A DNA stretch of 55,987 nt from a virus, in the IMG/VR virus record IMGVR_UViG_3300023106_000004, positions 1 through 55,987 of that record, one strand, 5' to 3'. Positions 7,024 to 37,205 of the stretch are shown one piece after another. The notes beneath the pieces are model-generated. The model worked only from the letters and a program-made list of their open reading frames with translations, did no database searches and had not been told where the DNA came from. The translations under genes and the position numbers were made by a program. How positions within the stretch are numbered: the first letter of the stretch is position 1; every line of letters starts with the position of its first letter.

Positions 7024-9116
7024 TCAAATAGATTAGCCGTAACTGGTTTCTTATGAAAGCCTATATCAAATAACATTGATTGGGCTTTTTCTACGTAATA
7101 ACTATAGTTAATATCATCCGGGAACGTATCGGGCATATCCATAATAGGTTTAGCGCCATCGCTATCCCCTACTTTGTTCCCATTTGACACGTAGTTGATT
7201 TGCCCACAGGTGTCTAGAGCGTAATACCAGCGAACCTCTTTACCCAGGTACACCCCGTCTTTATGGCCCCCGCCAGCGACCGATTTGACGGCTACAAATC
7301 GATTTATGTTCGTGCAGCTTCTAATCGATTCTTCAATCGGTTTTTTGCTTATCAAAAAGTCTTTAACGGCTTCAATACAAACGGTAGTAACCGGGTTTTT
7401 GTGGAATCGGAAAATGGCTAATTCGGGATCATCCCACGGATTTTTATATGCGCCGATAGCTTTAGCTTTAACAATACCGTCTTTATCTGGTGTTTTAATA
7501 GCTATGTAGTTATTAACGTCCTTGCTGTAAACGGCTGAATACTTGGTGTTTTCAGTTTTGAATCCTGTATGTTCTTCCCATGCCTTAATAATCTCTGCTT
7601 TACGCGCCTTCAAGATTTTAGGATATTTAGTGACAATACCGTCAGTGTTTGCTGAAATAACGGGAATGTTATTCAATTCAAACATTTCAATAAGCATAAG
7701 CAATAATAACTGCCCGCTTAAGGTTACTTGAATCATCAAATCAGGCGCATAAATTGCGGACCAAATAGAACCAAGTTTACCAAATGAACCGTTAATAACA
7801 ATCTTCAGAGAATCGCTAATAACTTTCCACATCAAAGCGCCAGCTTTATCGCCTTCTTTTTTGCACTTGGCTGCATTGCGTTTGGCTGTTACGCGCTGTT
7901 CTACAATGCCGTCATAAACTTCTAAAAATGCTTCAGTAAGATGCTTTGGAAATAGCTTCAGAATTAGAATGATTCGCGGATAATATGATTCTACATCATC
8001 GTCGTCAATTTCCGTTTCATCATCGGCATAATGCGCAATAGTCTTTTCGCAACTATGAATACCGCCCATGCCCATTTTATAAAGAGCATTACCAACGGCT
8101 ACTTTTAAAACCCATCGGCCTTTATCTTCTGAATCGTCTTTATCGTCTTTAACCAGTTCGCCCAAACCTTCAGGCCAAAGTGGTGCACCCGAATCAGACG
8201 TTACGAATTTAGCCGCTTTGATATCTTCATAAACTTGCTTGAGATACGGGGTCTGAAACTCAATAAATGGCGGCGGTTTATACTGAAAAGTAGTACCGGG
8301 CGGAATATCAGGCCGTTTTACTTCTTTACCTGTAAGACGTTCAATCTCTTTCTTTAATACAGTTTCCGCAATTTGCGCATCAGATTTAGAGCGTAAATCT
8401 ACACCATACTTTTCAGTAAGGTTATAACGCAACTGCATTTGTTCCGATAATTCATCTAGAATTAATTCCGTAGCGGGAATATCGGAACCTAGACAATAAT
8501 TCTTTACGTCTTGCGATTCTTCAAACGTGAGTTCTTTGTTATGGTCAAACGGCAAATCTTGAATACGCTTACCCATTAACCGCGCTGCATATTTCTTTAG
8601 TGAACCTTGCAACGGGCAAACTTCAATCAAATCAATATGATCGATATTCGGTAACTTTAAATTGAATTCTTTACACGCCTGGAAGGGCGTTAATCCCATA
8701 TGAATATCTTTTTGCGGGATGATTTGATTTGAATACGTTTTCAAGCGTTCGGCATTGTAGCCGCGCAATGAAAGCATCAGCATTAATTCATCATATTTTT
8801 TGCTGTTGAATCCGATTAACTGAAAATTGAATATGATCCAATTCAGCAAATCTAAATTCATGCCGCCAATTGGCGTTATTTCTTCAGCCCAATATTTGCC
8901 GAGTTCCTTGCACTTGAATCCAATAAGAAAGTAATTCTTAAAGCATTCAATATCCCATATCATTTTATAGCCGCGTGCACCGGCATCTATTAATTCATCA
9001 AATGTAAAATAATCGATTGGAATTTGACTACGTTTTACAGCAATTGCATCAACCCTTTGTTTAGGCTTCTTAGATACTGCATTGCCGTTTTCATCAGCGA
9101 AAAACTTAATGGTCAT
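7020..9116 (-). CDS. family-B DNA polymerase with 3'-5' exonuclease domain
   Basis: ExoI WDIECF, ExoII NSKKYDELM, Pol motif A DVESYYPRII (DxxSLYPS-like), motif B KIVINGSFGKLG (KxxxNSxYG-like), motif C SANTDGI (DTDS-like). Confidence 0.85.
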   Translation of the reverse strand: MTIKFFADENGNAVSKKPKQRVDAIAVKRSQIPIDYFTFDELIDAGARGYKMIWDIECFKNYFLIGFKCKELGKYWAEEITPIGGMNLDLLNWIIFNFQLIGFNSKKYDELMLMLSLRGYNAERLKTYSNQIIPQKDIHMGLTPFQACKEFNLKLPNIDHIDLIEVCPLQGSLKKYAARLMGKRIQDLPFDHNKELTFEESQDVKNYCLGSDIPATELILDELSEQMQLRYNLTEKYGVDLRSKSDAQIAETVLKKEIERLTGKEVKRPDIPPGTTFQYKPPPFIEFQTPYLKQVYEDIKAAKFVTSDSGAPLWPEGLGELVKDDKDDSEDKGRWVLKVAVGNALYKMGMGGIHSCEKTIAHYADDETEIDDDDVESYYPRIILILKLFPKHLTEAFLEVYDGIVEQRVTAKRNAAKCKKEGDKAGALMWKVISDSLKIVINGSFGKLGSIWSAIYAPDLMIQVTLSGQLLLLMLIEMFELNNIPVISANTDGIVTKYPKILKARKAEIIKAWEEHTGFKTENTKYSAVYSKDVNNYIAIKTPDKDGIVKAKAIGAYKNPWDDPELAIFRFHKNPVTTVCIEAVKDFLISKKPIEESIRSCTNINRFVAVKSVAGGGHKDGVYLGKEVRWYYALDTCGQINYVSNGNKVGDSDGAKPIMDMPDTFPDDINYSYYVEKAQSMLFDIGFHKKPVTANLFD

Positions 9117-10129
9117 TAAACGCTCATTCCCATAATTCCGCCGCGCACCTTATCGCCAAAGAATAAAGTTAAATGCCTGTCATTCACTTCAAAGTGTACA
9201 CTGTGGGCATATGGGCGAATCAGTTTCAAATAATTCAAATTGAATGCTAAACCCGGTTTGATACCTTCAATATCATACGTTGTTGCATTTTCCAATTTTA
9301 CACCATTTGACATTTTACCGTCAAGAAAATAAATTTTATTGTCAGTTGTAAACGGTGCTACGTTTTCTAACGCTTCATAAAATCCTGCCGGTAACGGCCA
9401 CGGATTAGAAGCTACGTCTAAAATTAGTTCGTATTTAGGGTAACCGTCAACAAACAATTGCGACTTAATAAAACTACCATCTTCAAAGTAGAACGTTGCA
9501 CTGTTCGCACTAAAACCAAAAGACTTTAGCGGTTTGTCTGATTTAACAATTGCATTAGCGGATGCCTTTGGTAATAGGATATTTGGCGGTAAATCGATTC
9601 CGTGCCACGCTTCAATAATAACGTGTCCATTGGTAGCTACTGAGGTATTGGCCTGAAGCAACACGCTGCATTTAAAAGGTCTGTCGGCCTTGTCATCAGC
9701 AAGGGGCAGGCAAGCCGCTAGCGCGGTTTTTAGAGCATCGGTAAGGGTAGCAACAGGCGGGTCCGGTTCGATGCCTGGAATGTCGGAAAAGGGCACGCAT
9801 GGGACCAATGCGCGGAACTTGCCCGACTTGATAGACAAGCGCCCGCTATCCAGTTCGGTAATTGAAATTGCTTCTTTGCACTTTGACAGTGCTGCAATTA
9901 ACGTATTGGTGTGCGGACAAACGTTTAGTGTTTCGTCAACATAGTGGCCTGCTGCTAAACCGCCATCAAAGCCCGTTACCGTACCGCCTGCAATGCGACA
10001 ATGCATTTGCATCGGTGTTCCGTCTGAATGCTGTGCTACTGAAATAAACTTCAATGCTTCTAATAAGCTGCACCCCGGTGTAGCTTTTTCAGCGGCAGGT
10101 TTACGGGCGCGGGGTTTAGCTGTTGCCAT
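9116..10129 (-). CDS. DNA polymerase sliding clamp, bacterial beta (DnaN)-like
   Basis: LLEALKFISVAQ...; LSIKSGKFRALVPCVPFSDIP resembles the DnaN l.v.sG.s.f.l..l.a.dFP pattern; about 337 aa; translationally coupled to the polymerase gene. Confidence 0.6.
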   Translation of the reverse strand: MATAKPRARKPAAEKATPGCSLLEALKFISVAQHSDGTPMQMHCRIAGGTVTGFDGGLAAGHYVDETLNVCPHTNTLIAALSKCKEAISITELDSGRLSIKSGKFRALVPCVPFSDIPGIEPDPPVATLTDALKTALAACLPLADDKADRPFKCSVLLQANTSVATNGHVIIEAWHGIDLPPNILLPKASANAIVKSDKPLKSFGFSANSATFYFEDGSFIKSQLFVDGYPKYELILDVASNPWPLPAGFYEALENVAPFTTDNKIYFLDGKMSNGVKLENATTYDIEGIKPGLAFNLNYLKLIRPYAHSVHFEVNDRHLTLFFGDKVRGGIMGMSV

Positions 10130-10851: not shown

Positions 10852-12516
10852 TTAAAACTCCCAATTTATAACTTCTGGATAGCGTAAATTGGCATGCACC
10901 AACATCGCCTTAGGTTGTCGCAATTCATTTGTGCGACTCAAAAACTCATTAACCGTTTTTGGTGGTTCGGTTGCAGCGTGACGTTTCCACCATTCGCGGG
11001 CGTTGTGTCCTGGCCGTCCGGTGTGTTCAAAGCATAGAAACATATTAATAGTTCTAATGCCGAATGGGTAAATAGCTTTCACTGTGGGCGGGCTAATAAT
11101 TCCTGCTGCTTTTTGTTTACCTTCATGCCGTTGATAAATAACCGGGCGTTTAATTGGTACAGTTTCAAAAACAGGGTTTTCATCTTCTTTCATCGGTGCA
11201 TTATTAAATGCAGTAGCCGACAATTTAGTTTCAAAACTGAATTCTTCAGCGCAACCACAGCAAAATCTAACTGACGCATGGTTATATTCATCACAGCCTA
11301 AAACCCATTCTTTAGGGTCTTTGCCTTTATTAACTAGCAGTTTCTCGGCAGAGCAAATTTTAATTGGTGGCGGTTCGCCTGTTTTTTCACCCGGTTTGCG
11401 CGGCAATACAGGATCATCGATAGGACCATTGCGTCCGATATTGCCCACAAAATCCAACACCCTGCAATTGTTTTTGCCTGGACTAACCCGCGTACCGCGT
11501 CCGTATTTCTGAACGTGTTTGCCTGGGCTGCATGTGGGCTGAAAGTCTCCAATTAAATCAATACGTGGATTGTCGTAACCAGTGGTGAGCATATTAGCGC
11601 CGACAATGCACCAATATTCATCATTATCAAATGCTTCTAAACGTTTGCGGTTTGTCTCAGAATCCAATTTAGAATGCACAAAAGTTACTGACGCGCCAAA
11701 CGAATCAAGCATATTTGCAATATGTTCGGCGTTCTTTACACCGGCTGCAAATATCATGCATTTCTGCCTATCGTATCCAATCTCTAATAACTCTTTGCAA
11801 GCGTTATAGGTAATTTCATCTGTATCAACCAATGCTTCAGCCTGTTTATTATTGAAGTCTCCACCAATAATAGACAATTGCGAAACGCCGTTAATAACGG
11901 TTTTAGTGGGCTTACCAACTAGCGGGCTCAAGTAGCCTTCAGCAATCAAGCGTTTAAACCATTCGTGAGTAGTAATATCAAAACAAATATCGCTAAACAA
12001 ACCACCATCGGTAAGCTTGCCCATTTTCAAACGGTAAGGTGTGGCGGTGAATCCAATAACTTTAAGATATGGATTAATTTTAGTCAGTGCTGCAATAACC
12101 TTCAGGTATTGTGAATCTTCATCGGACCCTAATAGGTGCGATTCATCAATTAGAATCAAATCCCTATGGCCGAATGCTTCAGGGTTTTTAGCAACAGACT
12201 GCACGCCACCAAAGATAATAGGCATCATCGTATCGCGTTGACCCAATCCGGCAGAATGAATGCCAATAGGTGCGGTAGGCCAAAAGGTTTGCATTTTCTG
12301 CGCGTTTTGCAGAATTAGTTTCCAAACGTGAGTAAGCATCAATACCCGCTGATTCGGGTAGAACCTGAATACGTCGCGCAGAAAATCGGCAATAACAATT
12401 GATTTACCGGAACCTGTGGGCATACACACCAACGGGTTGCCCTTACCGCCTTTTTCGTAATAGTCGAAAATGGCGTTCTTTGCATCAGTTTGGAAATAAT
12501 GCGGGGTGATTATCAT
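10852..12516 (-). CDS. SF2 DEAD/DEAH-box DNA helicase
   Basis: Walker A MPTGSGKS, motif II LIDESH, motif III TATP, motif VI QKYGRGTR; Cys-rich C-terminal extension. Confidence 0.85.
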   Translation of the reverse strand: MIITPHYFQTDAKNAIFDYYEKGGKGNPLVCMPTGSGKSIVIADFLRDVFRFYPNQRVLMLTHVWKLILQNAQKMQTFWPTAPIGIHSAGLGQRDTMMPIIFGGVQSVAKNPEAFGHRDLILIDESHLLGSDEDSQYLKVIAALTKINPYLKVIGFTATPYRLKMGKLTDGGLFSDICFDITTHEWFKRLIAEGYLSPLVGKPTKTVINGVSQLSIIGGDFNNKQAEALVDTDEITYNACKELLEIGYDRQKCMIFAAGVKNAEHIANMLDSFGASVTFVHSKLDSETNRKRLEAFDNDEYWCIVGANMLTTGYDNPRIDLIGDFQPTCSPGKHVQKYGRGTRVSPGKNNCRVLDFVGNIGRNGPIDDPVLPRKPGEKTGEPPPIKICSAEKLLVNKGKDPKEWVLGCDEYNHASVRFCCGCAEEFSFETKLSATAFNNAPMKEDENPVFETVPIKRPVIYQRHEGKQKAAGIISPPTVKAIYPFGIRTINMFLCFEHTGRPGHNAREWWKRHAATEPPKTVNEFLSRTNELRQPKAMLVHANLRYPEVINWEF

Positions 12517-13604
12517 TTAAAGTCTAAACCCGATTCAATTTCATATTCTGTATCCTGTACTACTTTAGTAGTATTTTTAGGCTTTGTAATACTTTGCTGA
12601 GTGCCCACAGTAGCCGTTATATCTAGCCATTGCTCACAACCCAATCTTGCAAAATCTCGCGGTATGATGCCGTTATGTACTGAACAAAAGAATTCAGCAT
12701 TATCAACAGCGGAACAGTTAACGCAACTACGGCAATTTTTAACGGCAGGTTTTCCATGGTGGCAAACATCCTTGAAATCGCATAAACTTTTGCATTGGAA
12801 AAACGTAGGATTTTCGCTAATCTTAGCTGGTGGTTCCTGGCTGAAGATAATGGAATGCGCTTTGACTTCCATTTGTTCCGCTAAATTGAAATCCAGTTTA
12901 GCAACTTCAATATAAAGATCATCGTCGTTTTTATTAGCACAAATATACAATACATGCTGAATATCATAATCTGCCCCATAGATCGAATTTTGAATGTAAT
13001 GGGCAGGTTTGGCTTTAGCCAAACCTTTAGCTTCTAGGCTGTTGAAACCTGCGCCAGTGCCGCTAGTCTTTGATTCTAGAATGGCAAAGCCTGCAATGCC
13101 GTATGCACTAGGGAAAGCTACAATTCCATCTAGCGAACCGCCCAAATGGCCGGAACACTTATTCTTAATGCGCAATTGTGGATGCGTGCCGTCTGGTTTG
13201 GTTTGGCTTTCGTCGTGTGTCCAAACGGTAAAGCCCAATCCGCGCAACCATTCAGAATGTCGCTTTTCTTCTAGATGGCCGCGATTGAATAGGCGCATTT
13301 GGCGACCGTCTTTTTTACCTTGTGCTGCCCATCGGAAGCCATACCACAATGCGCGCTTGCATTCATCGCCAATTTTAGACGCGCCTAGATGCCACCTGAA
13401 GCCATCGTTATAAATAGTGGCGGTGTGTGCCTCAATCTCGCGCCTGACACGTTCAGAAACAATTGATAAAGGCGTGTCATTTAAACTAACCGGATTTGCG
13501 TCGTCCGATTTTGTCGTTTTGTCGAGCGTATCGCTCACGTTGTCGGGTTGCATTCTTTTCTTTACGCCTTTTAAATTGGATGTAGTTATTACTACTGTGG
13601 GCAC
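12513..13604 (-). CDS. PD-(D/E)XK exonuclease, Cas4/RecB-like with Fe-S cysteines
   Basis: D...ILESK (D/ExK) core; one N-terminal Cys (DECKRALWY) and a C-terminal Cys cluster (CKSLCDFKDVC...CRSCVNC). The start is uncertain: it overlaps the upstream ORF by 68-119 nt. Confidence 0.7.
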   Translation of the reverse strand: MPTVVITTSNLKGVKKRMQPDNVSDTLDKTTKSDDANPVSLNDTPLSIVSERVRREIEAHTATIYNDGFRWHLGASKIGDECKRALWYGFRWAAQGKKDGRQMRLFNRGHLEEKRHSEWLRGLGFTVWTHDESQTKPDGTHPQLRIKNKCSGHLGGSLDGIVAFPSAYGIAGFAILESKTSGTGAGFNSLEAKGLAKAKPAHYIQNSIYGADYDIQHVLYICANKNDDDLYIEVAKLDFNLAEQMEVKAHSIIFSQEPPAKISENPTFFQCKSLCDFKDVCHHGKPAVKNCRSCVNCSAVDNAEFFCSVHNGIIPRDFARLGCEQWLDITATVGTQQSITKPKNTTKVVQDTEYEIESGLDFK

Positions 13605-14198: not shown

Positions 14199-14855
14199 TT
14201 ACCGCTTACCCCATGCCGGCTGTGCGCCTGCCGCTGGTGCAGCCTGTTGCGACCATCCGCCCGCCGCTGGTGCAGGGGCCGGTGCAGGGGCTGGCGCTGC
14301 TGCGGGCGGTGGTGCACCCCATCCACCCTGTGCGGCTGGTGCTGGTGCAGGGGCGGCTGCATATTGCTGCTGTGGTGCCGGTGCTGGTGCTGGTTGTCCT
14401 GCCGCTCTACCCGGTTCATTTCCATTCATATCAAACACTTTATGCACTTGCGTGAAAGGCGTAACTGTTTCACCCGCCGCCTGCTTATCGATTTGGGATT
14501 GCGTCAAAGGCTGTGCTTTAACTTCCACCACAAAAGGAATATTGTGTAATTGGCTAGTATCTTGAACCATAAACACGCCGGTAACATGGCACAGTGCCGA
14601 CAATTGCGATTCTGCAATCTGGCGCGGTTTTTCGTTAGCGTGGTATAGATTCAGCCGATGAAAGCCTGTAGCGCCCGCATGTTCACTACCCGGAATAGCC
14701 AGCAATTCAAAAACAAGCATACCGCCATTACCGTCAGCCGTACCCTTAATTTCAGATGCAGTAATAACTACAGGATATTTACCGATAGGCAATTGGCTAA
14801 ATCCGCCTTGTGATGGGTCTACTGCTTGCGCGTTGAATGGTTGTTGGAGTTGCAT
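14199..14855 (-). CDS. DUF669-like putative ssDNA-binding protein with Ala/Pro-rich C-terminal tail
   Basis: N-terminal LPIGKYPVVITASEIKGT pattern of DUF669; partner of an AAA_24/Sak4-type ATPase; C-terminal (AP)n low complexity. Confidence 0.6.
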   Translation of the reverse strand: MQLQQPFNAQAVDPSQGGFSQLPIGKYPVVITASEIKGTADGNGGMLVFELLAIPGSEHAGATGFHRLNLYHANEKPRQIAESQLSALCHVTGVFMVQDTSQLHNIPFVVEVKAQPLTQSQIDKQAAGETVTPFTQVHKVFDMNGNEPGRAAGQPAPAPAPQQQYAAAPAPAPAAQGGWGAPPPAAAPAPAPAPAPAAGGWSQQAAPAAGAQPAWGKR

Positions 14856-14932: not shown

Positions 14933-15610
14933 CTATGTCATAGCCTTTTGAAAAATAGAGGTTAAATTAGGCGGTTCAAACGTTGCGAGTTTACCGGACC
15001 TATCGCGCGCCAAAATGTCGAATTGTTCATTACAGCAAAATGCGGTTTGTTGTCCGATAACACCCGGAATTGTATGTTTACCCAAATGAAAAACTTCATC
15101 AAACAAGTGCGGAATTTTAACATTTAATTCCTTACCAGGAAAATAAGGTTTACGTTTTTGTGCACCGGCTTGTTCTACTGTAGTTTGCTTGCAAATCAAA
15201 TACAAATGCTTTTGCGGATGGTAATTCAACTTATTCATAGTTGCCATTACTTCTTCAGCCATTTCACCATAGGCTTTCAAGCCATGCGAATGCTTATTTA
15301 GCATTTCTTCCAAAATAACTTCGCAATATTCACTAACTGAATCCACGCAAAGCGTATCATAGTTTTTAGTTTCTGCTGAAGAAAAGAACCATGTAAAGAA
15401 TTCACGTATTTCTTTCGGTTTGTTAGCTTGCCAAGTAGGGACGTTAGAACCCGCCATAGAGCGCAGACCGGGTTCGATAGATAGAAATACCGGGCGCGGT
15501 GCGGTATTAATAATAGGCGTCTTGCCTGTGCCTGGATCGCCAAACGTCAGGCATTTAACGCCGTAGAATTGGGCGATTGAACCAGCGGGGCGTAAGTCTT
15601 TAGCTTGCAT
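14933..15610 (-). CDS. Sak4-like RecA-fold ATPase (AAA_24)
   Basis: Walker A FGDPGTGKTP; about 225 aa; adjacent to the DUF669-like gene. Confidence 0.7.
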   Translation of the reverse strand: MQAKDLRPAGSIAQFYGVKCLTFGDPGTGKTPIINTAPRPVFLSIEPGLRSMAGSNVPTWQANKPKEIREFFTWFFSSAETKNYDTLCVDSVSEYCEVILEEMLNKHSHGLKAYGEMAEEVMATMNKLNYHPQKHLYLICKQTTVEQAGAQKRKPYFPGKELNVKIPHLFDEVFHLGKHTIPGVIGQQTAFCCNEQFDILARDRSGKLATFEPPNLTSIFQKAMT

Positions 15611-16028: not shown

Positions 16029-16113
16029 TGGTGCGGCTGGCCGGAATCGAACCGGCACGCTGTGAAGCGACAGATTTTAAGTCTGTTGTGTCTACCTATT
16101 TCACCACAGCCGC
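16029..16113 (-). tRNA. tRNA-Leu (anticodon UAA), type II with long variable arm, CCA encoded
   Basis: Minus-strand read: acceptor GCGGCTG/CAGCCGC, D stem GTG/CAC, anticodon stem ACAGA/TCTGT with loop CTTAAAA, variable arm CGCTTCACAGCGT, T arm GCCGG-TTCGATT-CCGGC, then ACCA. Confidence 0.85.
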
Positions 16114-17274: not shown

Positions 17275-17472
17275 ATGCCCACAGATACCGTATGCCCTTG
17301 GTTAGACGAACCCTTGCAACGCCTACAAGAATTACCGCGTGGAACAACCCTAACGGCTGTTGCTGCGAACGCTGGCGTTCCGTTGCCCTGGTTGTCAAAA
17401 TTTGTAGCTGGCAAATACAGTTCTCCTAACATCCTGTACGTTTACCGTTTGCACTCCTACCTAACCAAATAA
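17275..17472 (+). CDS. helix-turn-helix DNA-binding protein
   Basis: ATG at 17275; TTLTAVAANAGVPLPWLSKFVAGK helix-turn-helix pattern; first gene of the rightward operon. Confidence 0.55.
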   Translation: MPTDTVCPWLDEPLQRLQELPRGTTLTAVAANAGVPLPWLSKFVAGKYSSPNILYVYRLHSYLTK

Positions 17473-19820
17473 TGTTTGAAAACATACCCACAGAAATGAG
17501 GGGTTTTCAGGCATGGGTGTTGTGGCGAAAAGAGGATACCGAAACCGGTAGACCTACTAAAGTTCCATACTCAATTACTGGTTACCCTGCTAGCCCTACA
17601 GATAGTGCAACTTGGACAACGTATGACAAAGTTGTGCAAGCCTATTTTGATAATCACACTTTGTATTCAGGCATAGGCTTTGTACTGTCAGATAATGACC
17701 CGTATACATTTATTGACTTAGATCAACCGAAAAACCCGGATGGTAGCCCGCTGGACCCCGCCGAATACGATAAACGTATGAAGCGCCAGCATGACATTTA
17801 CAACGCATTCGATAGCTATGCAGAGTTGTCGCCTAGTGGTGTAGGTTTGCACATTATTGTTAAAGGTAGTGTATCGAGTGGCCGTAAGCGTTCAAGCGTA
17901 GAGGTTTACAGTAATCAACGCTTTATGACAATGACGGGTAATGTCTATCGCAAAGCGCCAATTAATGAATACAACGAACTGATTAATTCACTGTGGGCAG
18001 AAATGGGCAAAGGGCAGGCCGGAATTCTGGCGTATGCCGGCCTGGATCAAGCGCCATTGTCACCGGATGAGGTCTACCGGTTAGCCTGTACGGCAAGTAA
18101 TGGCGAAAAGTTCACAGACTTATTTAATGATGGCAATTGGCAAAAATACTACCCTAGTCAATCTGAAGCCGACTTTGCAGTAATCGATATTCTTGCATTC
18201 TATTCAAAAAATAGAGCACAAGTTAAGATGATGTTTTTGGCATCTAAACTTGCACAGCGAGAAAAGTCACGCGCTAGCTATCGCATCAATTATATGTTAA
18301 ATCGTTGTTTCGATAACATGCTACCACCTGTAGATTTTGAAGGTTTGCGCGATCAAGTTCAAGCGGCAATTCTAAAAGCACAGGCTAAACCTAAAGCAAT
18401 TGAAATCAATGACGAAAAAGAATATCTTAATCTTGCCAAACCTCAATTACTATCTACAACGTTAGATTCTGTTTATAGTCCGCCGCCTGGATTGCTAGGC
18501 GACATTGCACAATACATTTATGCGCAAGCGCCTATCCCTGTAGCGGAAATCGCACTAGCTGGTGCAATCGGTTTAATGTCGGGTATCTGTGGGAAAGCGT
18601 TTAATATTTCAGGTACAGGATTGAACCAATATACATTGTTGTTAGCTGCAACCGGAACCGGTAAGGAGTCAGCCGCCGCAGGTATCGGTAAGCTGATGAC
18701 TGAAGTTATTAAGCTGGTTCCTACAGCTGCTGAATTTATGGGGCCTAGCACAATCTCTAGCCCGCAAGCATTGAACAAAGCGTTAATGCAAACGCCTAGT
18801 ATCATTTCAATGGTTGGTGAATTCGGATTGCACTTGCGGCAAATGGGGTCCGACAATGCTAGTCCGCACATGATTGGTTTGAAGTCAATGATTCTTGACT
18901 TATATAACAAATCTGGTGAAGGTGCAAAGCTTGGCGGTATGATCTATTCGGATAAAGAAAAGAACACTGCCGTTATTTCAGCACCAGCGTTTAGCATCTT
19001 TGGCGAAACTGCACCGGAACCGTTTTATGAAGCGTTAACCGAATCCATGATTAGTGGCGGTTTGTTGCCACGTTTTACGATCATTGAATATCATGGTGAT
19101 CGTAAACTAATGAATAAGGGTGCTGGTTCGGTAAAGCCTTCTAGTGAACTGGTGCAAAGCTTGTCTACCCTGTGTGCATCGGCTTTGGGTCTGGTGCATC
19201 AAAAGCGAGTGATTCACTTGCAGACAACACCACAAGCCGAAAAGATTTTGGATGCGTTCGCTCTACATGCCCACAATAACATTATTGGTTCGATGGAACT
19301 TAGACGCCAGTTGTGGAATCGAGCACATATTAAAGTGCTGAAGCTGGCCGCATTGGTAGCTATTGGAGTTAACCAGTTTCATCCTACCATTGATGAAGTA
19401 GCGGCAAATTGGGCCATTCGTATCGTTGAGACTGATGTTAAAAATATGCTTGGTAGGTTTGAAGATGGCGAAGTGGGATTGAACAATGGTGAAAACAAAC
19501 AATTGAATGTTGTTTGCTCAGCTATCAAAAAATTCCTAACGTCACCTTTTAGCGATGTGGAAAAGTCTAGCGGTGGTGAAAAGGCTAGAGCGTTGCATTC
19601 TGAACGCATCGTACCCTACAGCTTTTTGCAACGTTCTACCGCCAGCAATGCGGCGTTCAAGAATGACAAGATTGGCGCGAGTAGTGCACTAAAACGTACC
19701 ATCAAAATTCTGGTTGATCGTGGTGACTTGCAAGTAATGATGCGGGCCGATCTTATGAAAAAATTTGGTACAGGTGCTGAAGCCTACGCGATAGGGTCTA
19801 CTGTAGCTTTTGGATTGTAA
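17472..19820 (+). CDS. bifunctional primase-polymerase / DUF3987-type helicase
   Basis: N-terminal prim-pol pattern (KVPY...SATWTTYDKV...GIGFVL...FIDLD); PriCT-like SQSEADFAVIDILAFYS; central P-loop region LLAATGTGKES. Confidence 0.8.
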   Translation: MFENIPTEMRGFQAWVLWRKEDTETGRPTKVPYSITGYPASPTDSATWTTYDKVVQAYFDNHTLYSGIGFVLSDNDPYTFIDLDQPKNPDGSPLDPAEYDKRMKRQHDIYNAFDSYAELSPSGVGLHIIVKGSVSSGRKRSSVEVYSNQRFMTMTGNVYRKAPINEYNELINSLWAEMGKGQAGILAYAGLDQAPLSPDEVYRLACTASNGEKFTDLFNDGNWQKYYPSQSEADFAVIDILAFYSKNRAQVKMMFLASKLAQREKSRASYRINYMLNRCFDNMLPPVDFEGLRDQVQAAILKAQAKPKAIEINDEKEYLNLAKPQLLSTTLDSVYSPPPGLLGDIAQYIYAQAPIPVAEIALAGAIGLMSGICGKAFNISGTGLNQYTLLLAATGTGKESAAAGIGKLMTEVIKLVPTAAEFMGPSTISSPQALNKALMQTPSIISMVGEFGLHLRQMGSDNASPHMIGLKSMILDLYNKSGEGAKLGGMIYSDKEKNTAVISAPAFSIFGETAPEPFYEALTESMISGGLLPRFTIIEYHGDRKLMNKGAGSVKPSSELVQSLSTLCASALGLVHQKRVIHLQTTPQAEKILDAFALHAHNNIIGSMELRRQLWNRAHIKVLKLAALVAIGVNQFHPTIDEVAANWAIRIVETDVKNMLGRFEDGEVGLNNGENKQLNVVCSAIKKFLTSPFSDVEKSSGGEKARALHSERIVPYSFLQRSTASNAAFKNDKIGASSALKRTIKILVDRGDLQVMMRADLMKKFGTGAEAYAIGSTVAFGL

Positions 19821-20636: not shown

Positions 20637-20642
20637 CAACTA

Positions 20643-20662
20643 AGCCCTTCGGGGCTTTTTCT
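20643..20662 (+). terminator. rho-independent terminator
   Basis: AGCCC-TTCG-GGGCT followed by TTTTT. Confidence 0.6.
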
Positions 20663-20700
20663 TCGCTTGTTGACCGTTACATATTTTTACATATTTATAA

Positions 20701-20745
20701 TTGCAAAGCTAAAATTCTTTGCTATAATTGAGTCACACCGACCGA
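20701..20745 (+). promoter_or_regulatory. early promoter, family member 1 (TTGCAA-16-TGCTATAAT) plus conserved leader
   Basis: -35 at 20701..20706; extended -10 TGCTATAAT ending at 20728; leader TGAGTCACACCGACCGAAAG shared with 23731, 26408 and 32870. Confidence 0.5.
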
Positions 20746-21748: not shown

Positions 21749-21957
21749 CAATCAAAACTTACAAATTTGCTGACGGTAAATATGAATTTGATCGTGATAC
21801 AGATACAAGTTTTATACTTAATTGTCGGCGTAATGGTGAAGATTGGCCCGCAGGCATTCATGGATTTCAACATAACAATTGCGTGCATGCTATGCTAAAC
21901 TATATTGATGAACTTGAAGAACAATTGAAAGCTGCGCGTGGCTCGAATCAGAACTAA
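21745..21957 (+). CDS. hypothetical protein (70 aa)
   Basis: Track ORF. Confidence 0.6.
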   Translation: MTIKTYKFADGKYEFDRDTDTSFILNCRRNGEDWPAGIHGFQHNNCVHAMLNYIDELEEQLKAARGSNQN

Positions 21958-22663
21958 ATACAAAATCATTGCATCATTGATTGTTGGTGCTGCATTGTTC
22001 GCTATTGCTGAATCTGTAATTATGCCTGTACCCACAGTGAAGGCTGATTATTATGGTTCAATGGTTGCGCCCGATTCGTCAATTCATGTACCTGTTGACA
22101 TTAAAAAGGGATGCAAGATTGCAGCCTTTGGGGTAGCCCCCTGGCTAGCCCCTGGTGCTGTGCGTAGCCCCGCCTGGGAAGTTGCAACGCAAAAGGCACT
22201 ACTAGGTATGGGCGTACCCGTAGAAGCCGCACAGCGGGCGATTGTGGCCCTGCGCTCGGGGTCTGGTGGCTCACCTGTGGGCATGTCAGACAGCCATGGC
22301 GTATCCACAATTGATAATGTAATTTATTACCCTACTTTTAATACAACATATAAGATTGCGGAAAGGTATGCAGTTTGCAATGAATCTAGAACTAATTTCG
22401 GCAATAATCAACGGCAAGAATATGCAATTGTTTATAGAGTAACCGATGCGTCTGGTTATGTGTGGCATGTAGGGGAATTTTTGGCATGCGGTAATGTGTC
22501 GTTATTTAGTCCTGCACCTAAAGGATGGATGCCGGGTGATGGCACACCTAACGGTAATGGTTCAGGTGCTGGAATTAGCAATGTGCCTGAACCTAGTAGC
22601 TGGACACTATTTCTAGCCGCATTGGTTGTTATGTTATATATTGTTTGGAGAAAACGAAAATGA
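21938..22663 (+). CDS. secreted protein with C-terminal PEP-CTERM (exosortase) sorting signal
   Basis: GTG start; N-terminal signal-like KIIASLIVGAALFAIAESV; C-terminus VPEPSSWTLFLAALVVMLYIVWRKRK gives the PEP motif, a TM helix and a basic cluster (nt 22583..22660). Confidence 0.7.
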   Translation: MARIRTKYKIIASLIVGAALFAIAESVIMPVPTVKADYYGSMVAPDSSIHVPVDIKKGCKIAAFGVAPWLAPGAVRSPAWEVATQKALLGMGVPVEAAQRAIVALRSGSGGSPVGMSDSHGVSTIDNVIYYPTFNTTYKIAERYAVCNESRTNFGNNQRQEYAIVYRVTDASGYVWHVGEFLACGNVSLFSPAPKGWMPGDGTPNGNGSGAGISNVPEPSSWTLFLAALVVMLYIVWRKRK

Positions 22664-22928: not shown

Positions 22929-23204
22929 ATGTTTTTCCATCTACAGCCCACTCGGCTAACAATTCGCATCTATAAGAATGAAGGTGGCTATGAAAGGCGC
23001 GAACCGTTTATTGGTACAGCACAAGTTGACCTAAAAAGTAATGGTGAAGCTTTTATACATGCAATGCATAATCGTGAACCATTGAAGCCAAACACGTTTA
23101 GAAAAGTTGCAATGGCACTTGCTAAAGAATATGGTGTAACATCCATCAAATGGGAACACAGTGGCAAAGATCAAGAATTTGAGACTAAGCCTGCTGATCT
23201 TTAA
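22929..23204 (+). CDS. hypothetical protein (91 aa)
   Basis: Track ORF. Confidence 0.5.
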   Translation: MFFHLQPTRLTIRIYKNEGGYERREPFIGTAQVDLKSNGEAFIHAMHNREPLKPNTFRKVAMALAKEYGVTSIKWEHSGKDQEFETKPADL

Positions 23205-23249
23205 TCTAATCCCCACTAACACCTAACTAACCCCCTTGCCGGGAAGACC

Positions 23250-23585
23250 ATGACTACTTTCACACTGAAGCGCCCCTGGCCGACCCCGGCAGATAACGAG
23301 TCTGCGCAGGCCTGCACATGCACGGAATATCCGCACTCCATGGAATGCGGCATGCCCTCGCTCTACGAGTTCACGGGCGACATCAAGCATGCGAACACGC
23401 TGCTCATCCCTGTGCAACGCCTGCGGAACGGCCGGCGTGAGCCCATGACCTCCGAAATGCGCGGCCTGCTTATCCTCGATACCTACGGGTTGGCGGCAGT
23501 CGCCGAGCAGCCGGCATGCGTGTTGGCTGCATTTGAGAAAGGCATCTTGGCCGCTGAAGCCGAACACGGCATCCTTCCTGCCTAA
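23250..23585 (+). CDS. hypothetical protein in the G+C-rich insert (111 aa)
   Basis: GGAAG before the ATG; G/C-dominated third codon positions in this frame; co-oriented with neighbours. Confidence 0.5.
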   Translation: MTTFTLKRPWPTPADNESAQACTCTEYPHSMECGMPSLYEFTGDIKHANTLLIPVQRLRNGRREPMTSEMRGLLILDTYGLAAVAEQPACVLAAFEKGILAAEAEHGILPA

Positions 23586-23644
23586 CCCATCCCCTGCCCG
23601 AGAGGCTAGTATTGTCTAACCATATCTAACCCACTCTAAGACCA

Positions 23645-23666
23645 GACCCTACGGGGTCTTTTCTTT
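23645..23666 (+). terminator. rho-independent terminator
   Basis: GACCC-TACG-GGGTC followed by TTTTCTTT. Confidence 0.55.
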
Positions 23667-23702
23667 AACCTTTGATCGTTACAAATATTTACACATTAGC
23701 TA

Positions 23703-23747
23703 TTGTGGTTCGTTAAATGTTTGCTATAATTCATTCACACTAACCGA
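23703..23747 (+). promoter_or_regulatory. early promoter, family member 2 (TGCTATAAT) plus conserved leader
   Basis: TGCTATAAT ending at 23730; leader TCATTCACACTAACCGAAAG; ungapped 62/88 identity with 20670..20757. Confidence 0.5.
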
Positions 23748-23756
23748 AAGCAACAA

Positions 23757-24215
23757 ATGAATATGACACGAAAACCATCACCATCTACCGAAGTTGAAGC
23801 ATTCCGCGCATGGTTCGCCGAGCACGGTACTGACCCCGTGGACATGCGTGGCCGCGCTGGGCATGCGTGGCAGGCTTGGCACGCTCGCGCATGCCTCCAA
23901 CCTCAAACGGAAATGCCGGCAGAAGACGGCGCAGACCTGAGTGGCGCCGAGGTTGATACCTTGGTGGCGCTTGTCGAAGCTGGCCCGCTTTGGGATGGCG
24001 ACGTGCCCAGCAAGCGCGGCCGTGATTCGTTGATTGCGCGAGGCTGGGCGGTTCGCGTCGTTGTCAAGGGCGAAGACGGCTACACGGCGGCAACCTATGC
24101 CGGGCGCGACGTGTACACAGCCCGCTACGACAACGCCGACACGATCCGCGAAGCGACGGCCATGCGCAAGGCGCGCAGGGCACTGAATAGCGCGTCGGTC
24201 AACAGCCGCCATTAG
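23757..24215 (+). CDS. hypothetical protein in the G+C-rich insert (152 aa)
   Basis: The ATG sits at the same distance from the promoter as in cassette 1. The first ~15 codons are A+T-rich and the rest is G+C-rich with G/C third positions. Confidence 0.55.
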   Translation: MNMTRKPSPSTEVEAFRAWFAEHGTDPVDMRGRAGHAWQAWHARACLQPQTEMPAEDGADLSGAEVDTLVALVEAGPLWDGDVPSKRGRDSLIARGWAVRVVVKGEDGYTAATYAGRDVYTARYDNADTIREATAMRKARRALNSASVNSRH

Positions 24216-24460: not shown

Positions 24461-24492
24461 GCCCACAATATTTGTTTTGTTGTGGGCTTTTT
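24461..24492 (+). terminator. rho-independent terminator whose stem is an inverted pair of the genome-wide word
   Basis: GCCCACAA (24461..24468) pairs with TTGTGGGC (24480..24487), followed by TTTTT; lies between convergent genes. Confidence 0.6.
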
Positions 24493-24496
24493 GTTG

Positions 24497-25192
24497 TCAC
24501 TTGATTTTATAGCACTCTGCGCCGGTATCGTAATTGCGCAAAGTATCAGCCCTCATTAGTACGACTAACGTACCTTCTTTAATTAGCTTTTCAATAATTT
24601 TTCTGAGTGTGCCAGTTGCGCCTAAAGTTGTACGTTTGAAGCTTGAGACTGATGCTGTGTTGCGTTGCAAATATGAGTACGTTATCACTCTATCGTTTTT
24701 CATTTTACTAGTTAGCCTAGTATCAATGTTAGCCATCGATGCGTAATCTTTAACTAAATACTTGTCTATCAATATTCTAACCTTTGTTTCGTTATCTGTT
24801 GTCTCTACTGGCTGTGGATTTAGTTTTGAATAGAACGCATCATTGTTAGTATTGTCTATCATACGAACAATTTCATAAGTTGATTCAGTTTCAACTAATA
24901 CAAATCGTTTAGTGTTTTTAGAATTCATTGTTAAATAACTTTTAATATCTTTACCAGTTAACAACATTGAATCATCTTTAGGCGCAACGATTGATTCGTT
25001 TTCGGCTAACAATTCCATGGCATTTTTAATTGCTAAATATTCGGCGGACAACTTGATAGCGATGGGGTTTTGCATGATGACGTATAAGCGAGTATTAGGG
25101 CTTTTCATTATACACGAATTTACTATATATCTCTGATCGATTAATAAAAAGTCGATTTTCTCGTAAGTCGTTGATTTTAAAGGATAAACCAC
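24497..25192 (-). CDS. hypothetical protein whose C-terminal ~64 aa is a paralogue of the primase-helicase C-terminus
   Basis: RVITYSYLQRNTASVSSFKRTTLGATGTLRKIIEKLIKEGTLVVLMRADTLRNYDTGAECYKI aligns with primase RIVPYSFLQRSTASNAAFKNDKIGASSALKRTIKILVDRGDLQVMMRADLMKKFGTGAEAYAI. The start (GTG at 25192) is uncertain. Confidence 0.6.
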   Translation of the reverse strand: MVYPLKSTTYEKIDFLLIDQRYIVNSCIMKSPNTRLYVIMQNPIAIKLSAEYLAIKNAMELLAENESIVAPKDDSMLLTGKDIKSYLTMNSKNTKRFVLVETESTYEIVRMIDNTNNDAFYSKLNPQPVETTDNETKVRILIDKYLVKDYASMANIDTRLTSKMKNDRVITYSYLQRNTASVSSFKRTTLGATGTLRKIIEKLIKEGTLVVLMRADTLRNYDTGAECYKIK

Positions 25193-33841: not shown

Positions 33842-34192
33842 ATGCCTGGAACTTCCCGCGTTTTAATTCCCGTTTGCTTCGAGAAAACCACAACTGGTAT
33901 TCAAACAGCGCCAGATGGTAGAGCCTATGCTAGTTTGTTTGGTAGCGATGCGTTAGATACAACTTATCAAGCCACAGTAGAAGGTACGGGCGCAGTAACT
34001 GCAACTGTTCAAATTGAAGTATCTAACGATCTTAAAGGATGGTTAGTGGATGCAATTGCTACTTTAGCTTTAACTGGTACAAACGTAGCTACGGCAGGTT
34101 TTACTTCTAGTGCAAACTGGATGTATGTACGCGCAAATATTACCGCAATTACCGGCACTGGTGCTAAGGTAACAGTTACGATTGGCGGTTAA
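33842..34192 (+). CDS. hypothetical beta-rich protein (116 aa)
   Basis: Track ORF; T/A/G/V-rich composition. Confidence 0.55.
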   Translation: MPGTSRVLIPVCFEKTTTGIQTAPDGRAYASLFGSDALDTTYQATVEGTGAVTATVQIEVSNDLKGWLVDAIATLALTGTNVATAGFTSSANWMYVRANITAITGTGAKVTVTIGG

Positions 34193-34193
34193 T

Positions 34194-35489
34194 ATGGGAC
34201 TAGGCTTTTCTAGTTCTTTAAAACGTGCTCAATCTGGTGCGGCTGCTGGTAAAGGGTTTTTAAATTCTTTACAATTTAGTAGTGGTATTGGTGGCGGTAG
34301 TTCACAACCAGTAATCATTAATCCGATAATGTTTGCCAACAGAATTGGCACACCTACTCAGCCAATTTTGAATAGTAGTAATTGGAAACAGTTTAATCAG
34401 CGCGTCGGAATTACAAATTTATCTGACGTTTCGTTGCAACAACTTTTCTTTCGATTTGCTAACGTTAAGGCTGACGGTAATGGCGATTCTGCTGCTACGG
34501 TAAAAATCGGATTGATTGGTGGTAATACTACTTCTACCGATCCGGGACGTTCGCGGCTGTTGACCTGGGACGCTGGCGGCTCAACTTCAAAAGTTATTGC
34601 AGCCGGTGCAATCGCTGAAACCTATCCAACAGACCTTGGCGCACCACTAGCACCGGGTAACATGCTTCAGTTGACTATCAATATTACATTCCCGACTGCA
34701 CCCGCATACGTACCCTGTACTAATATTCAATGTGGCAGTTTCCCATATGATTCTAATGAAGCTGGTGTAACGGTTACTGATAAGAGTATGAGTGGTGTTC
34801 TCGGTTCTTATGCAATGACTCGGCAAATCTTTGGGCCAATCGGTGCATACGGTACGCCTGTTGTTGGCCCTACTGCGGTTAAACCACGTGTGTTGATTTT
34901 TGGCGATTCTATCGTTGTTGGTGCTAACGATACAACAAGTGGTGCGCTAATTGGTTGGTTGCAACGTGCATTGACGGGTTCATATTCCTGGGTTGCTGCT
35001 GCACAAAATGGTTATTCGTGGACCAATATGGTAGGTGCTGCACGTGCACGAACTTTAAGCCCTGTGCGAGATGGGGCATTCACACATGCAATTTCAGGAC
35101 TAAACACTAACGATTTTGGATATGCGGTAAGTGCTGCACAAATTTACGCAGCCATGATTAGCGTTCGTGATGAATTGCTAACAAAAGGTGTAAAGTTAAT
35201 TGTTTGCACATCCTGGCCTCGCACCAATGCAGGTAACACGGCGCAACAAGCTGGTGATCCTGCTAACGTATTTACACGCCGTTCAGACCTTAACCAATTG
35301 ATTCGAGATAACAATGGGGTTGGTTACGGCTATTATGATTTAGCCGCACAAACGGAAGACGGCAATACGGGTTTATGGCGTACCGATCTTGGTTCACCAA
35401 CTGCTGATGGTATTCATCCTGAAACAGTAATTCATACAAATGTTAGAATTGATTTAGCATCTAAATTGTCTACGCTTTTAGCGGTCTAA
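34194..35489 (+). CDS. SGNH/GDSL-family hydrolase (putative polysaccharide/LPS esterase) with N-terminal beta-rich domain
   Basis: Block I VLIFGDSIVVG; GLNTND region; block V DGIHPE near the C-terminus. ATG at 34194 is preferred to the TTG track start. Confidence 0.7.
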   Translation: MGLGFSSSLKRAQSGAAAGKGFLNSLQFSSGIGGGSSQPVIINPIMFANRIGTPTQPILNSSNWKQFNQRVGITNLSDVSLQQLFFRFANVKADGNGDSAATVKIGLIGGNTTSTDPGRSRLLTWDAGGSTSKVIAAGAIAETYPTDLGAPLAPGNMLQLTINITFPTAPAYVPCTNIQCGSFPYDSNEAGVTVTDKSMSGVLGSYAMTRQIFGPIGAYGTPVVGPTAVKPRVLIFGDSIVVGANDTTSGALIGWLQRALTGSYSWVAAAQNGYSWTNMVGAARARTLSPVRDGAFTHAISGLNTNDFGYAVSAAQIYAAMISVRDELLTKGVKLIVCTSWPRTNAGNTAQQAGDPANVFTRRSDLNQLIRDNNGVGYGYYDLAAQTEDGNTGLWRTDLGSPTADGIHPETVIHTNVRIDLASKLSTLLAV

Positions 35490-35532: not shown

Positions 35533-35675
35533 CGTATGCACATCTGACAATCAGTTGCAGACATTGACAGTATGGACGCCTACACTGTGGGCTATCTATG
35601 ACCTACAAGGGCATTATGTTTGCACGTCCATGCTACAGCGGGTATCATTGGCCAATCCGGCCTGAAAGGTCGCAA

Positions 35676-36029
35676 ATGAACTTACCTTTTAAAATGCCCG
35701 ATAAAGATTCAAATTTTGGCAAGTTGACAGATCACACCGGTACAGCCGTTGTAAAGTATTGGCCTATCATTATTGCTGTAGTTGCCGCATCATTATCTGT
35801 AGGTGCGATTTATACTAAGCTTGACTATATCGCTAAGGTGTTAGATCGTAACGAATCGCAATTTAATGCGTTTAATGATCGTCAAACTTTATTTAGTCAA
35901 TCGACTATTGAAATGCGTAGCCAGTTAAGTAATCAAAACGAAACAAACGCAAGGTTTGTGCAACAACTTAACGATATCAATAGGCGCGTAGATGCTATTG
36001 CTGATAAACAAAGGTGGGCTCCAAAATGA
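35676..36029 (+). CDS. single-pass membrane protein with coiled-coil ectodomain (lysis-associated?)
   Basis: ATG at 35676 preceded by AAAGG; TM WPIIIAVVAASLSVGAIY; first gene of the lysis cluster. Confidence 0.5.
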   Translation: MNLPFKMPDKDSNFGKLTDHTGTAVVKYWPIIIAVVAASLSVGAIYTKLDYIAKVLDRNESQFNAFNDRQTLFSQSTIEMRSQLSNQNETNARFVQQLNDINRRVDAIADKQRWAPK

Positions 36030-36319
36030 GTATTGGCATCCGAATCCGTTTCATCGATACTGCTAAAAGCTGGTGGCGCATGTGGAGCATTCGTTTCACC
36101 GCTTTAGGTACTGCCCTATACACATATTTAATTGCATCACCTGATGTAGTTTTACAAGCATGGAACTTTTTACCAAATGATGCTAAATCTTTTATTCCCA
36201 CAGATTATGCTTTATGGATTCCAGCAATCCTTATGGTATTGGGTATGTTTTCCAGAGTCGTTAAACAGGAAAAAATTCCAGACCCGAAAGTAGAAGATGG
36301 CACGCCTAAAAACGATTAG
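36026..36319 (+). CDS. putative holin
   Basis: ATGA coupling; 97 aa with 2-3 hydrophobic helices and a charged C-terminus; directly upstream of the endolysin. Confidence 0.55.
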   Translation: MSIGIRIRFIDTAKSWWRMWSIRFTALGTALYTYLIASPDVVLQAWNFLPNDAKSFIPTDYALWIPAILMVLGMFSRVVKQEKIPDPKVEDGTPKND

Positions 36320-36968: not shown

Positions 36969-37087
36969 AAGCCGCTACAAATTCAACTGAAGTACGCAAT
37001 GAAGTTACTAAGCTTGATAATGGTGATGCTCTTAACGAGTTGCGCACAAACTTCGCCCGTGATTCAGACGGAAACAAAAGTAATTGA
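36788..37087 (+). CDS. i-spanin (Rz-like)
   Basis: GTG start inside a CTGTGGGCA copy; N-terminal TM ILGFIGAAIAGIFGAFFIG; charged coiled periplasmic part; contains the start of the o-spanin gene. Confidence 0.6.
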   Translation: MGIETILGFIGAAIAGIFGAFFIGRTKGKSKADTDNRIRQSEIDSQRVVQSNQKAADAQVKAATNSTEVRNEVTKLDNGDALNELRTNFARDSDGNKSN

Positions 37088-37205
37088 TACGTCTTGCAGT
37101 TGGGTTAAAGTCATTTCAATTTCAATTAAAGATGAGATTAGCGACGTTACCGCCCGTCAGATACTGGCGCATAATCGCCTAGTATTAAAGAATTGTCCGA
37201 AGTGA
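36999..37205 (+). CDS. o-spanin (Rz1-like outer-membrane lipoprotein), overlapping architecture
   Basis: Signal peptide plus lipobox LLTS-C; 68 aa; starts inside the i-spanin gene in another frame and extends beyond it. Confidence 0.7.
   Translation: MKLLSLIMVMLLTSCAQTSPVIQTETKVIDTSCSWVKVISISIKDEISDVTARQILAHNRLVLKNCPK

Follow-up and report, generated by a model that had tools for sequence, protein, structure and literature searches.

The 55,987-nucleotide viral genome IMGVR_UViG_3300023106_000004 (hereafter the window, meaning the whole stretch of DNA that was analyzed) carries, at positions 21938..22663 of the plus strand, a gene whose 241-amino-acid (aa) product ends in a PEP-CTERM signal, the C-terminal mark of exosortase substrates. 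Sorting by the PEP-CTERM/exosortase system is widespread among Gram-negative bacteria that form flocs or biofilms, and both the target to which the substrates are transferred and their final location are poorly understood. Judging by the sequence and profile comparisons described below, the gene is a member of a previously undescribed, phage-only branch of a cellular PEP-CTERM superfamily. The sorting signal is already known; a conserved phage clade that carries this signal on a core without a structural match is new. We consider it probable, from the sequences compared, that the phage protein uses the exosortase of its host to reach the envelope or the layer of extracellular polymeric substances (EPS).

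Sorting signal, N-terminal segment and core of the phage protein

The open reading frame (ORF) is 726 nt long, starts with GTG, overlaps the stop of the preceding small ORF by 20 nt, and encodes 241 aa followed by a stop codon. An earlier note on the window, made from its letters without database searches, had described this ORF and its product; both were confirmed in the sequence and by an independent gene caller, which gave the identical 241-aa product on the public source contig (ENA ERZ27228489, 56,001 nt). Upstream of the GTG there is only a weak GAAAG. The internal ATG at 22022, raised in the earlier note as a possible true start, is unsupported, because the N-terminal segment is common to 54 of 58 family members and no Shine-Dalgarno-like sequence was seen in the 22 bases upstream of that ATG. 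The product (hereafter the window protein) consists of four parts: a basic and hydrophobic N terminus, a core of about 150 aa, a linker rich in Gly, Asn, and Ser, and a tail made of VPEP, a hydrophobic helix, and RKRK.

The tail (aa 216-241; 22583..22660, + strand) is delimited by two curated hidden Markov models and by conservation in the family. It comprises V216-P217-E218-P219, the helix W222-W237, and the basic cluster R238-K241, in the order VPEP / WTLFLAALVVMLYIVW / RKRK, and its hydrophobic stretch of 16 residues and basic end run directly into the stop codon. The window protein exceeds the cut-offs of both models (PF07589, 26.8 bits against a gathering threshold of 20.7, E 5e-6, aa 216-240; TIGR02595, 17.4 bits against 16), which bears out the tripartite signal that the earlier note had seen in the letters. 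When a regular expression for such a tail was applied to all six-frame ORFs of at least 50 aa, the target ORF was the single match among the 230 ORFs of the window, and in each related phage locus the homolog alone matched. The Gly/Asn/Ser linker that was said to precede the tail is also present (aa 201-215, GDGTPNGNGSGAGISN; 22538..22582, + strand). It is disordered in the AlphaFold model, where the predicted local distance difference test (pLDDT) score stays below 50 over residues 202-218, and both its length and its sequence are hypervariable among homologs.

In an alignment of 50 members that are 25 to 44% identical to the window protein, E218 and P219 of the tail are invariant, and P217 and L224 are found in at least 90% of the members. 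Mean identity to the window protein is 40% in the tail, 12% in the linker, 36% in aa 50-125 of the core, and 42% in aa 126-200 of the core. PF07589 is matched individually by 41 of the 50 members (E ≤ 0.01) and is the only Pfam domain that recurs. Given that a plain membrane anchor would not need an invariant Glu-Pro beside a hypervariable spacer, the sorting signal appears to be in use, and the pattern of conservation indicates that it is maintained by selection across the phage family.

The N-terminal segment (21938..22009, + strand) is an export or anchor segment as predicted from hydropathy and from a helix at residues 3-27 of the AlphaFold model. It has a basic n-region (M1-K9, MARIRTKYK; net charge +4 across nine residues), a 15-residue hydrophobic region (I10-A24, IIASLIVGAALFAIA; Kyte-Doolittle values up to 2.7), and an AXA-type site, A22-I23-A24, directly before E25. 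Of the 58 members of the phage clade, 54 keep a basic n-region and, after it, a hydrophobic segment of 9 to 22 residues. Many of these n-regions are highly basic and extend over 12 to 22 residues, as would suit a signal anchor no less than a signal peptide. The signal-peptide-like N terminus of the earlier note is thus there in its basic and hydrophobic parts and its AXA site, and a cleavable signal and a signal anchor are not separated by these features. Either way, the predicted topology would place the N terminus in the cytoplasm, the core in the periplasm, and the basic C-terminal tail in the cytoplasm. A twin-arginine-like sequence, SRSPxKRR-V/L-I-V/I-K/R, recurs in the n-regions of a subset of the clade (e.g., P0005, P0007, P0025, and the copy at locus L008) and is missing from the window protein. 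We rejected twin-arginine (Tat) export as a family trait, because the pattern RRx-hydrophobic-hydrophobic fits only 9 of 54 members and the window protein is not one of them.

The conserved core (aa 50-200; 22085..22537, + strand) is defined by the alignments and by a domain-only AlphaFold model as two helices on an antiparallel beta-sheet. Residues C59, P68, C147, C184, and N186 of the core are invariant in the 50-member alignment, as is M1, and G65, A87, P94, and E161 are present in at least 90% of the members. The full-length AlphaFold2 model, made from an eight-sequence alignment, has pLDDT above 85 for residues 50-200. The domain-only model (pLDDT 91.9, predicted template modeling score 0.87) has a short strand, two helices, and a six-to-seven-stranded antiparallel sheet. 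A Foldseek search of the PDB with both models returned nothing significant (best E about 0.05-0.11, template modeling [TM] score 0.14-0.21), a profile search of PDB sequences with the core family gave no match, and searches of Pfam and PHROGs found no family for the core. The best PDB fold match, arylamine N-acetyltransferase (E 0.05-0.1, TM score 0.14-0.21), was rejected as insignificant. In BFVD, the fold search picked out a single unnamed viral protein (A0A1B0UZY4, E 9e-4). Three invariant Cys residues in a domain that is predicted to be exported suggest one disulfide and one free thiol. An enzyme of the Cys-His type was considered and discarded, since the His that is conserved in the cellular relatives (H175) is not kept in the phage clade.

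Phage-borne and chromosomal relatives

An exhaustive HMMER search of 1.84 billion cluster representatives, with an alignment of homologs of the window protein as the query, returned 260 proteins at E ≤ 1e-3 and 44 at E ≤ 1e-30. These numbers bear on the idea that the ORF or its motif arose by chance. Such an origin could account for the marginal TIGR02595 score and for the GTG start with its weak upstream GAAAG. It is contradicted by the Pfam match, by the 260 representative proteins, and by a core that folds with high confidence, and we regard its probability as negligible; as far as sequences can tell, the homology data already exclude it.

Nearly all of the matches P0001 to P0058 (188 to 308 aa) share one architecture, and about 54 representatives, one per 50%-identity cluster, have that of the window protein. 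A word-indexed protein search found seven further homologs (37 to 49% identity), all with the four-part layout. With tblastn against 50,697 phage records, the window protein matched one record, gp29 of EBPR siphovirus 1 (AEI71193, JF412302), and three divergent members of the clade likewise found EBPR siphovirus 1 only. Protein gp29 is 45% identical to the window protein over residues 39-190, has the same layout, and ends in VPEPSTLALLCLALLLGRKFYA. The two proteins are alike in family and architecture, and gp29 too is encoded among small non-structural genes; they differ in that EBPR siphovirus 1 is a different phage, with 54% GC, and that no other shared gene was detected in the compared 8.5-kb stretch around gp29. 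Its host is given as "unknown," the phage is non-temperate, and gp29, deposited in 2011 as "hypothetical," is not discussed in its description (PMC3097231). No cultured phage of known host carrying the gene was found among the 50,697 records.

The earlier note knew of no characterized PEP-CTERM protein encoded by a phage. This stands for the literature searched: a full-text search for PEP-CTERM together with phage or bacteriophage found no description of such a protein in a tailed phage. The gene is not unique to the window, however, as the cluster representatives and gp29 attest.

We checked the genomic context of six copies of the phage clade, gp29 of EBPR siphovirus 1 among them, and all six lie on phage DNA, with GC contents from 35 to 63%. 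One of them, P0007, directly follows the primase on a 14.7-kb contig (L003) whose replication module is related to that of the window (primase, 55% identity; Cas4 exonuclease, 63%; single-stranded DNA-binding protein [SSB], 62%; Sak4, 57%). Another, P0003, is one of a series of small genes that include DUF3850 and an Rv2179c-like exonuclease. Copies are also found on three IMG/VR viral contigs; on one of them, the terminase and the portal are related to their counterparts in the window as well. Because the related loci other than L003 share essentially only the target gene with the window, the gene moves between otherwise unrelated phages. A single degenerate pattern for the phage-type motif found no copy in one genome each of 185,579 prokaryotic species. 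As a side observation, the helicase of L003, a low-GC contig (1-1226, - strand; 909 aa), has Hint and LAGLIDADG matches and aligns with the window helicase (10852-12516, - strand) only in short flanks of 75 to 83% identity; an intein that is lacking from the window helicase appears to interrupt it.

The weaker HMMER matches, from P0059 onward (mostly 300 to 420 aa), have a C-G-N motif and a PEP-CTERM tail. Their core matches positions 2-120 of NF038119, the "MHFG family PEP-CTERM protein" model (E 1e-15 to 1e-21, 57 to 78 bits, cut-off 100). The window protein scores 16.8 bits on this model through its tail alone, against the same cut-off, so that, by sequence, it is not an NF038119 member and belongs to the same superfamily. 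An hhalign comparison of the phage-type alignment with the chromosomal MHFG-like group gave a probability of 99.9% (E 4e-31). The homology is independent of the shared tail, because with both alignments trimmed to the core the probability is still 99.6% (E 7e-25, 121 columns). The motif of the cellular group was absent from the 2.9 million viral contigs scanned. A genome scan found it at 80 loci (L010 to L089), all in high-GC Burkholderiales of the Rubrivivax/Ideonella/Aquabacterium/Pseudaquabacterium type, many of them on contigs of 0.1 to 3.7 Mb; the cellular branch is thus chromosomal, in bacteria that form flocs. A neighbor-joining tree of 173 core domains, drawn without support values and with context verified for only 6 phage and 23 chromosomal leaves, places all six context-verified phage copies in a clade of 57 and all 23 chromosomal copies in a clade of 116.

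The phage clade and NF038119 with the related chromosomal group have in common three invariant Cys, a Glu, and the C-G-N motif in the core, followed by a linker and a PEP-CTERM tail. They differ in that the chromosomal proteins have an extra N-terminal Cys4 module and a housekeeping neighborhood and form a separate clade, and the two sets of cores are only about 25% identical. These comparisons support a common origin with the cellular PEP-CTERM family that is old and was followed by diversification within phages. A homology to cellular PEP-CTERM proteins, for which the earlier note had proposed a search among host repertoires, is therefore real and covers the whole core, but the relation is ancient and the clades are separate. 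Within the cellular group (e.g., aa 1-60 of P0059), the N terminus has a conserved, zinc-ribbon-like CxxC...RYxC...CxWxG pattern that is predicted to be cytoplasmic and is followed by a transmembrane segment. A Cys4 N terminus with a transmembrane segment is an unusual architecture for an exosortase substrate.

Neighbors of the cellular loci include genes for an SRP54-type GTPase, cytochrome c assembly, a polyhydroxybutyrate depolymerase, a hybrid histidine kinase, and a sigma-54 activator, and no partner gene is universally conserved beside the cellular homologs. Within a few kilobases of the cellular copies, hybrid histidine-kinase genes are found at 19 of 38 loci and sigma-54 activator genes at 9 of 38. 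These neighbors, together with the homology of core and tail and the lack of the N-terminal Cys4 module in the phage clade, would suit a phage protein that mimics a host MHFG-like protein as a decoy or in a dominant-negative way, titrating a partner or saturating the exosortase and so shutting down host PEP-CTERM sorting or signaling. The RpoN dependence of floc-related PEP-CTERM genes in a related genus (PMC9850573) also counts in its favor. Cores that are only about 25% identical and fall into separate clades are, however, ill suited to precise mimicry; high-GC Burkholderiales are the only bacteria in which the cellular family was found, whereas the phage copies span 35 to 63% GC; and the neighborhood of the cellular genes is not conserved. 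We therefore think a decoy distinctly unlikely.

The earlier note had also observed that the center of the gene (22100..22300, + strand), which lies inside the core, is richer in G+C than its flanks, and this is so (58 to 64% versus 30 to 40%). The G+C content at third codon positions (GC3) is 0.51 for codons 51-125, compared with 0.24 to 0.30 in the other parts of the gene and a genome mean of 0.35, and it corresponds to about the 94th percentile of 75-codon windows in the genome. The encoded residues (aa 50-125) are rich in Ala, Gly, Pro, and Arg. The explanation offered at the time, acquisition from a host, is not supported by comparison: none of the sampled homologs resembles the GC-rich segment more closely than it resembles the remainder of the protein (36% versus 42% mean identity), and the phage and cellular clades are separate. 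A recent import from a host is thus unsupported, and a recent recombination of the segment, considered separately, found no support in the segment-wise identities either. It follows that a recently captured piece of host cargo with no phage-specific role is highly improbable. The GC-rich center and the clearly foreign GC-rich islands nearby (23250-24215) would be in line with such cargo, yet it would have no close cellular homolog, its motif is absent from the 185,579 genomes scanned, and all close relatives are on phage DNA in a clade of their own.

Phage setting of the gene

The phage-borne nature of the gene, as claimed in the earlier note, is evident from its surroundings. PHROG matches in the window cover tail, replication, terminase, portal, capsid, tape-measure, and endolysin genes, and spanin-like ORFs are present as well. 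From left to right, they include a tail protein (2204-5809), the DNA polymerase (7020-9116, - strand), a processivity factor (9116-10129, - strand), the helicase (10852-12516, - strand), a Cas4-type exonuclease (12513-13604, - strand), an SSB (14199-14855, - strand), the Sak4 annealase (14933-15610, - strand), and a primase-helicase (17472-19820). A single tRNA-Leu gene (anticodon TAA; 16029-16113, - strand) has the recombination genes on one side and the divergent primase operon on the other. On the right are the terminase large subunit (37614-39074), the portal (39083-40486), the major capsid protein (42987-43967), a minor tail protein (49895-51451), and the tape-measure protein (52698-55724). 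With a tape-measure gene on its right and tail genes on its left, the window is consistent with a complete, circularly permuted siphovirus genome. No integrase was found among the window ORFs scanned, and Megablast of 24 kb of the window against the 50,697 phage records gave no match.

The lysis cassette (35598-37205) has two small ORFs with one transmembrane segment each (35598-36029 and 36014-36319), an endolysin with a PHROG match (36297-36968), an i-spanin-like ORF (36788-37087), and, overlapping the latter, an o-spanin-like ORF with the lipobox LLTSC (36999-37205). Just upstream of the cassette, a 435-aa ORF (34182-35489, + strand) has a weak lipase-like match in the moron/auxiliary category (phrog_6102, E 1e-6). 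Because i-spanin-like and o-spanin-like ORFs are present, the host is taken to be diderm. The other host clues are the capsid (at most 37% identity) and the primase (about 54%), which give "Proteobacteria-type" relatives only, and the tRNA-Leu is uninformative. Among cultured phages, the replication module comes closest to that of siphoviruses of Xanthomonas, Pseudomonas, and Variovorax (about 54% identity). A role of the target gene as a component of the lysis cassette (holin or spanin) was rejected, the two being 13 kb apart.

Going downstream from the primase, the target gene follows after 2 kb on the same strand and has small ORFs around it. Its transcription unit may begin after a terminator-like hairpin (20642-20657) at promoter-like sites (20686-20728, + strand) and may end at a hairpin with a T-run (23644-23659, + strand); these boundaries are inferred from position only, since the counts of sites in the consensus scans did not exceed those in shuffled controls. 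Just downstream of the gene is a strong compositional island (23250-24215; 52% G+C over 23001-24000), which has the look of a moron acquired recently from a high-GC source. It holds a foreign-looking ORF (23250..23585, + strand) and, beyond the hairpin at 23644-23659, a second ORF (23757..24215, + strand) that deviates much more than the center of the target gene, with GC3 of 0.65 to 0.80 and PHROG matches only to families of unknown function (phrog_4365), the latter followed by a terminator-like hairpin (24461-24487). Beyond this hairpin, a 231-aa ORF (24497-25192, - strand) resembles the C-terminal ~100 residues of a primase family (phrog_3022 positions 689-784, E 1e-11). With 30% identity to the C terminus of the L003 primase, this ORF is a stand-alone copy of the primase C-terminal domain.

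None of the window ORFs has more than two hydrophobic segments, and a polytopic membrane protein is thus not encoded. Therefore, the phage is without an exosortase of its own, and any exosortase that acts on the window protein must be that of the host.

Possible role at the envelope and comparison with known systems

If the protein is sorted as its tail predicts, the gene would be expressed from the non-structural region of the phage, which holds replication and accessory genes. The basic and hydrophobic N terminus would drive the three-cysteine core of about 150 aa into the periplasm, and the C-terminal helix would anchor the protein to the inner membrane, with RKRK on the cytoplasmic side. 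The host exosortase would then recognize VPEP, remove the anchor, and pass the core to the outer envelope or the EPS layer. There, as a phage-made equivalent of some host envelope protein, the product may change the surface or the matrix of the infected cell, with the likely effect that further adsorption or injection is blocked or that the retention of EPS on the cell is altered. We infer translocation, C-terminal anchoring, recognition of VPEP, and passage to the envelope or EPS because exosortases are known to traffic PEP-CTERM proteins to the cell exterior, where these proteins keep EPS stably on the cell and favor flocculation (PMC12188702, PMC9850573). Cleavage by the exosortase, the final location, the timing, and the benefit to the phage are likewise proposals; the early expression named in the earlier note would follow from the position of the gene only.

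What the protein does at the envelope or in the EPS is a guess by analogy, because the core has no structural or functional analogue, and we rate any particular benefit much below the sorting itself. For superinfection exclusion or receptor masking, both suggested in the earlier note along with EPS remodeling, the only clue is positional: the gene is in the non-structural region and, in L003, directly after the primase. We put forward only tentatively the wider proposal that a clade of uncultured tailed phages (35 to 63% GC) exploits the host exosortase through an accessory gene, expressed before or alongside replication, that delivers a phage-evolved three-cysteine domain to the cell surface or EPS and so rewires the binding of matrix polymers or phage particles.

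Several observations weigh against the proposed sorting and surface role. The TIGR02595 score barely exceeds its cut-off, and 9 of the 50 aligned members miss an E value of 0.01 for PF07589. The IMG/VR copy at locus L008 (9785-10630, + strand) has IPEPSS and a hydrophobic helix and ends in ...FFFGAS without a basic cluster; its tail may be a variant or degenerate form of the signal. For the core, the PDB fold and sequence searches found no structural or functional analogue. Finally, the cytoplasmic zinc-ribbon-like N terminus and transmembrane segment of the cellular relatives suggest that these proteins, and perhaps the phage proteins too, may stay in the inner membrane instead of being released.

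The last point leads to the possibility of an inner-membrane protein that acts without an exosortase, held by one or both of its terminal helices with its core in the periplasm, where it might, for example, block DNA injection, and its PEP motif an inherited relic. Classical superinfection-exclusion proteins of the inner membrane block DNA injection, and the position of the gene among early or accessory genes fits proteins of this kind. Two hydrophobic helices, one at each terminus, and the long, strongly basic, more signal-anchor-like n-regions of many members point the same way, as does the membrane retention suggested for the cellular relatives. A relic would decay, however, yet Glu-Pro is invariant and the first Pro is kept in at least 90% of the 50 members beside the hypervariable linker, and 41 of the 50 still score with PF07589. 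For these reasons, we regard an exosortase-independent membrane protein as rather unlikely and continue to prefer export followed by sorting through the host exosortase.

If this preference is correct, the window protein would be the first phage-encoded exosortase substrate and could serve as a small and portable reporter of the target to which exosortases attach their substrates. Its compact, well-folding core of about 150 aa would make it a simple model substrate for exosortase biochemistry. The gene might also be used as a host-range marker, with hosts restricted to exosortase-bearing lineages. Such sorting would suggest that phages manipulate the EPS and protein matrix, or the cell surface, by way of a host sorting enzyme, which is relevant to the ecology of phages in activated sludge and biofilms. 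The findings also provide a first annotation for the protein family that includes gp29 of EBPR siphovirus 1.

Among cellular systems, the closest comparison is with substrates such as the floc protein PepA of Zoogloea and Aquincola. The window protein resembles them in the tripartite signal at the extreme C terminus, an N-terminal segment predicted to serve in export, and the low-complexity linker. In contrast to PepA-type substrates, it is encoded by a lytic-type siphovirus, has an unrelated core and no exosortase or EPS locus in cis, and is a predicted substrate.

Among phage systems, the comparison is with envelope proteins that ride a host sorting pathway, namely, the lipoprotein-type exclusion proteins Llp of T5, Cor of phi80 and N15, and Ltp of TP-J34. 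To our knowledge, these proteins are related to the window protein neither in sequence nor in fold. The likeness is one of strategy: in each case, a non-structural phage gene encodes a product with a host sorting signal, and action at the envelope is, for the window protein, our proposal. The signals differ, in that Llp, Cor, and Ltp use a lipobox and the Lol pathway, whereas the window protein carries the PEP-CTERM signal of the exosortase pathway.

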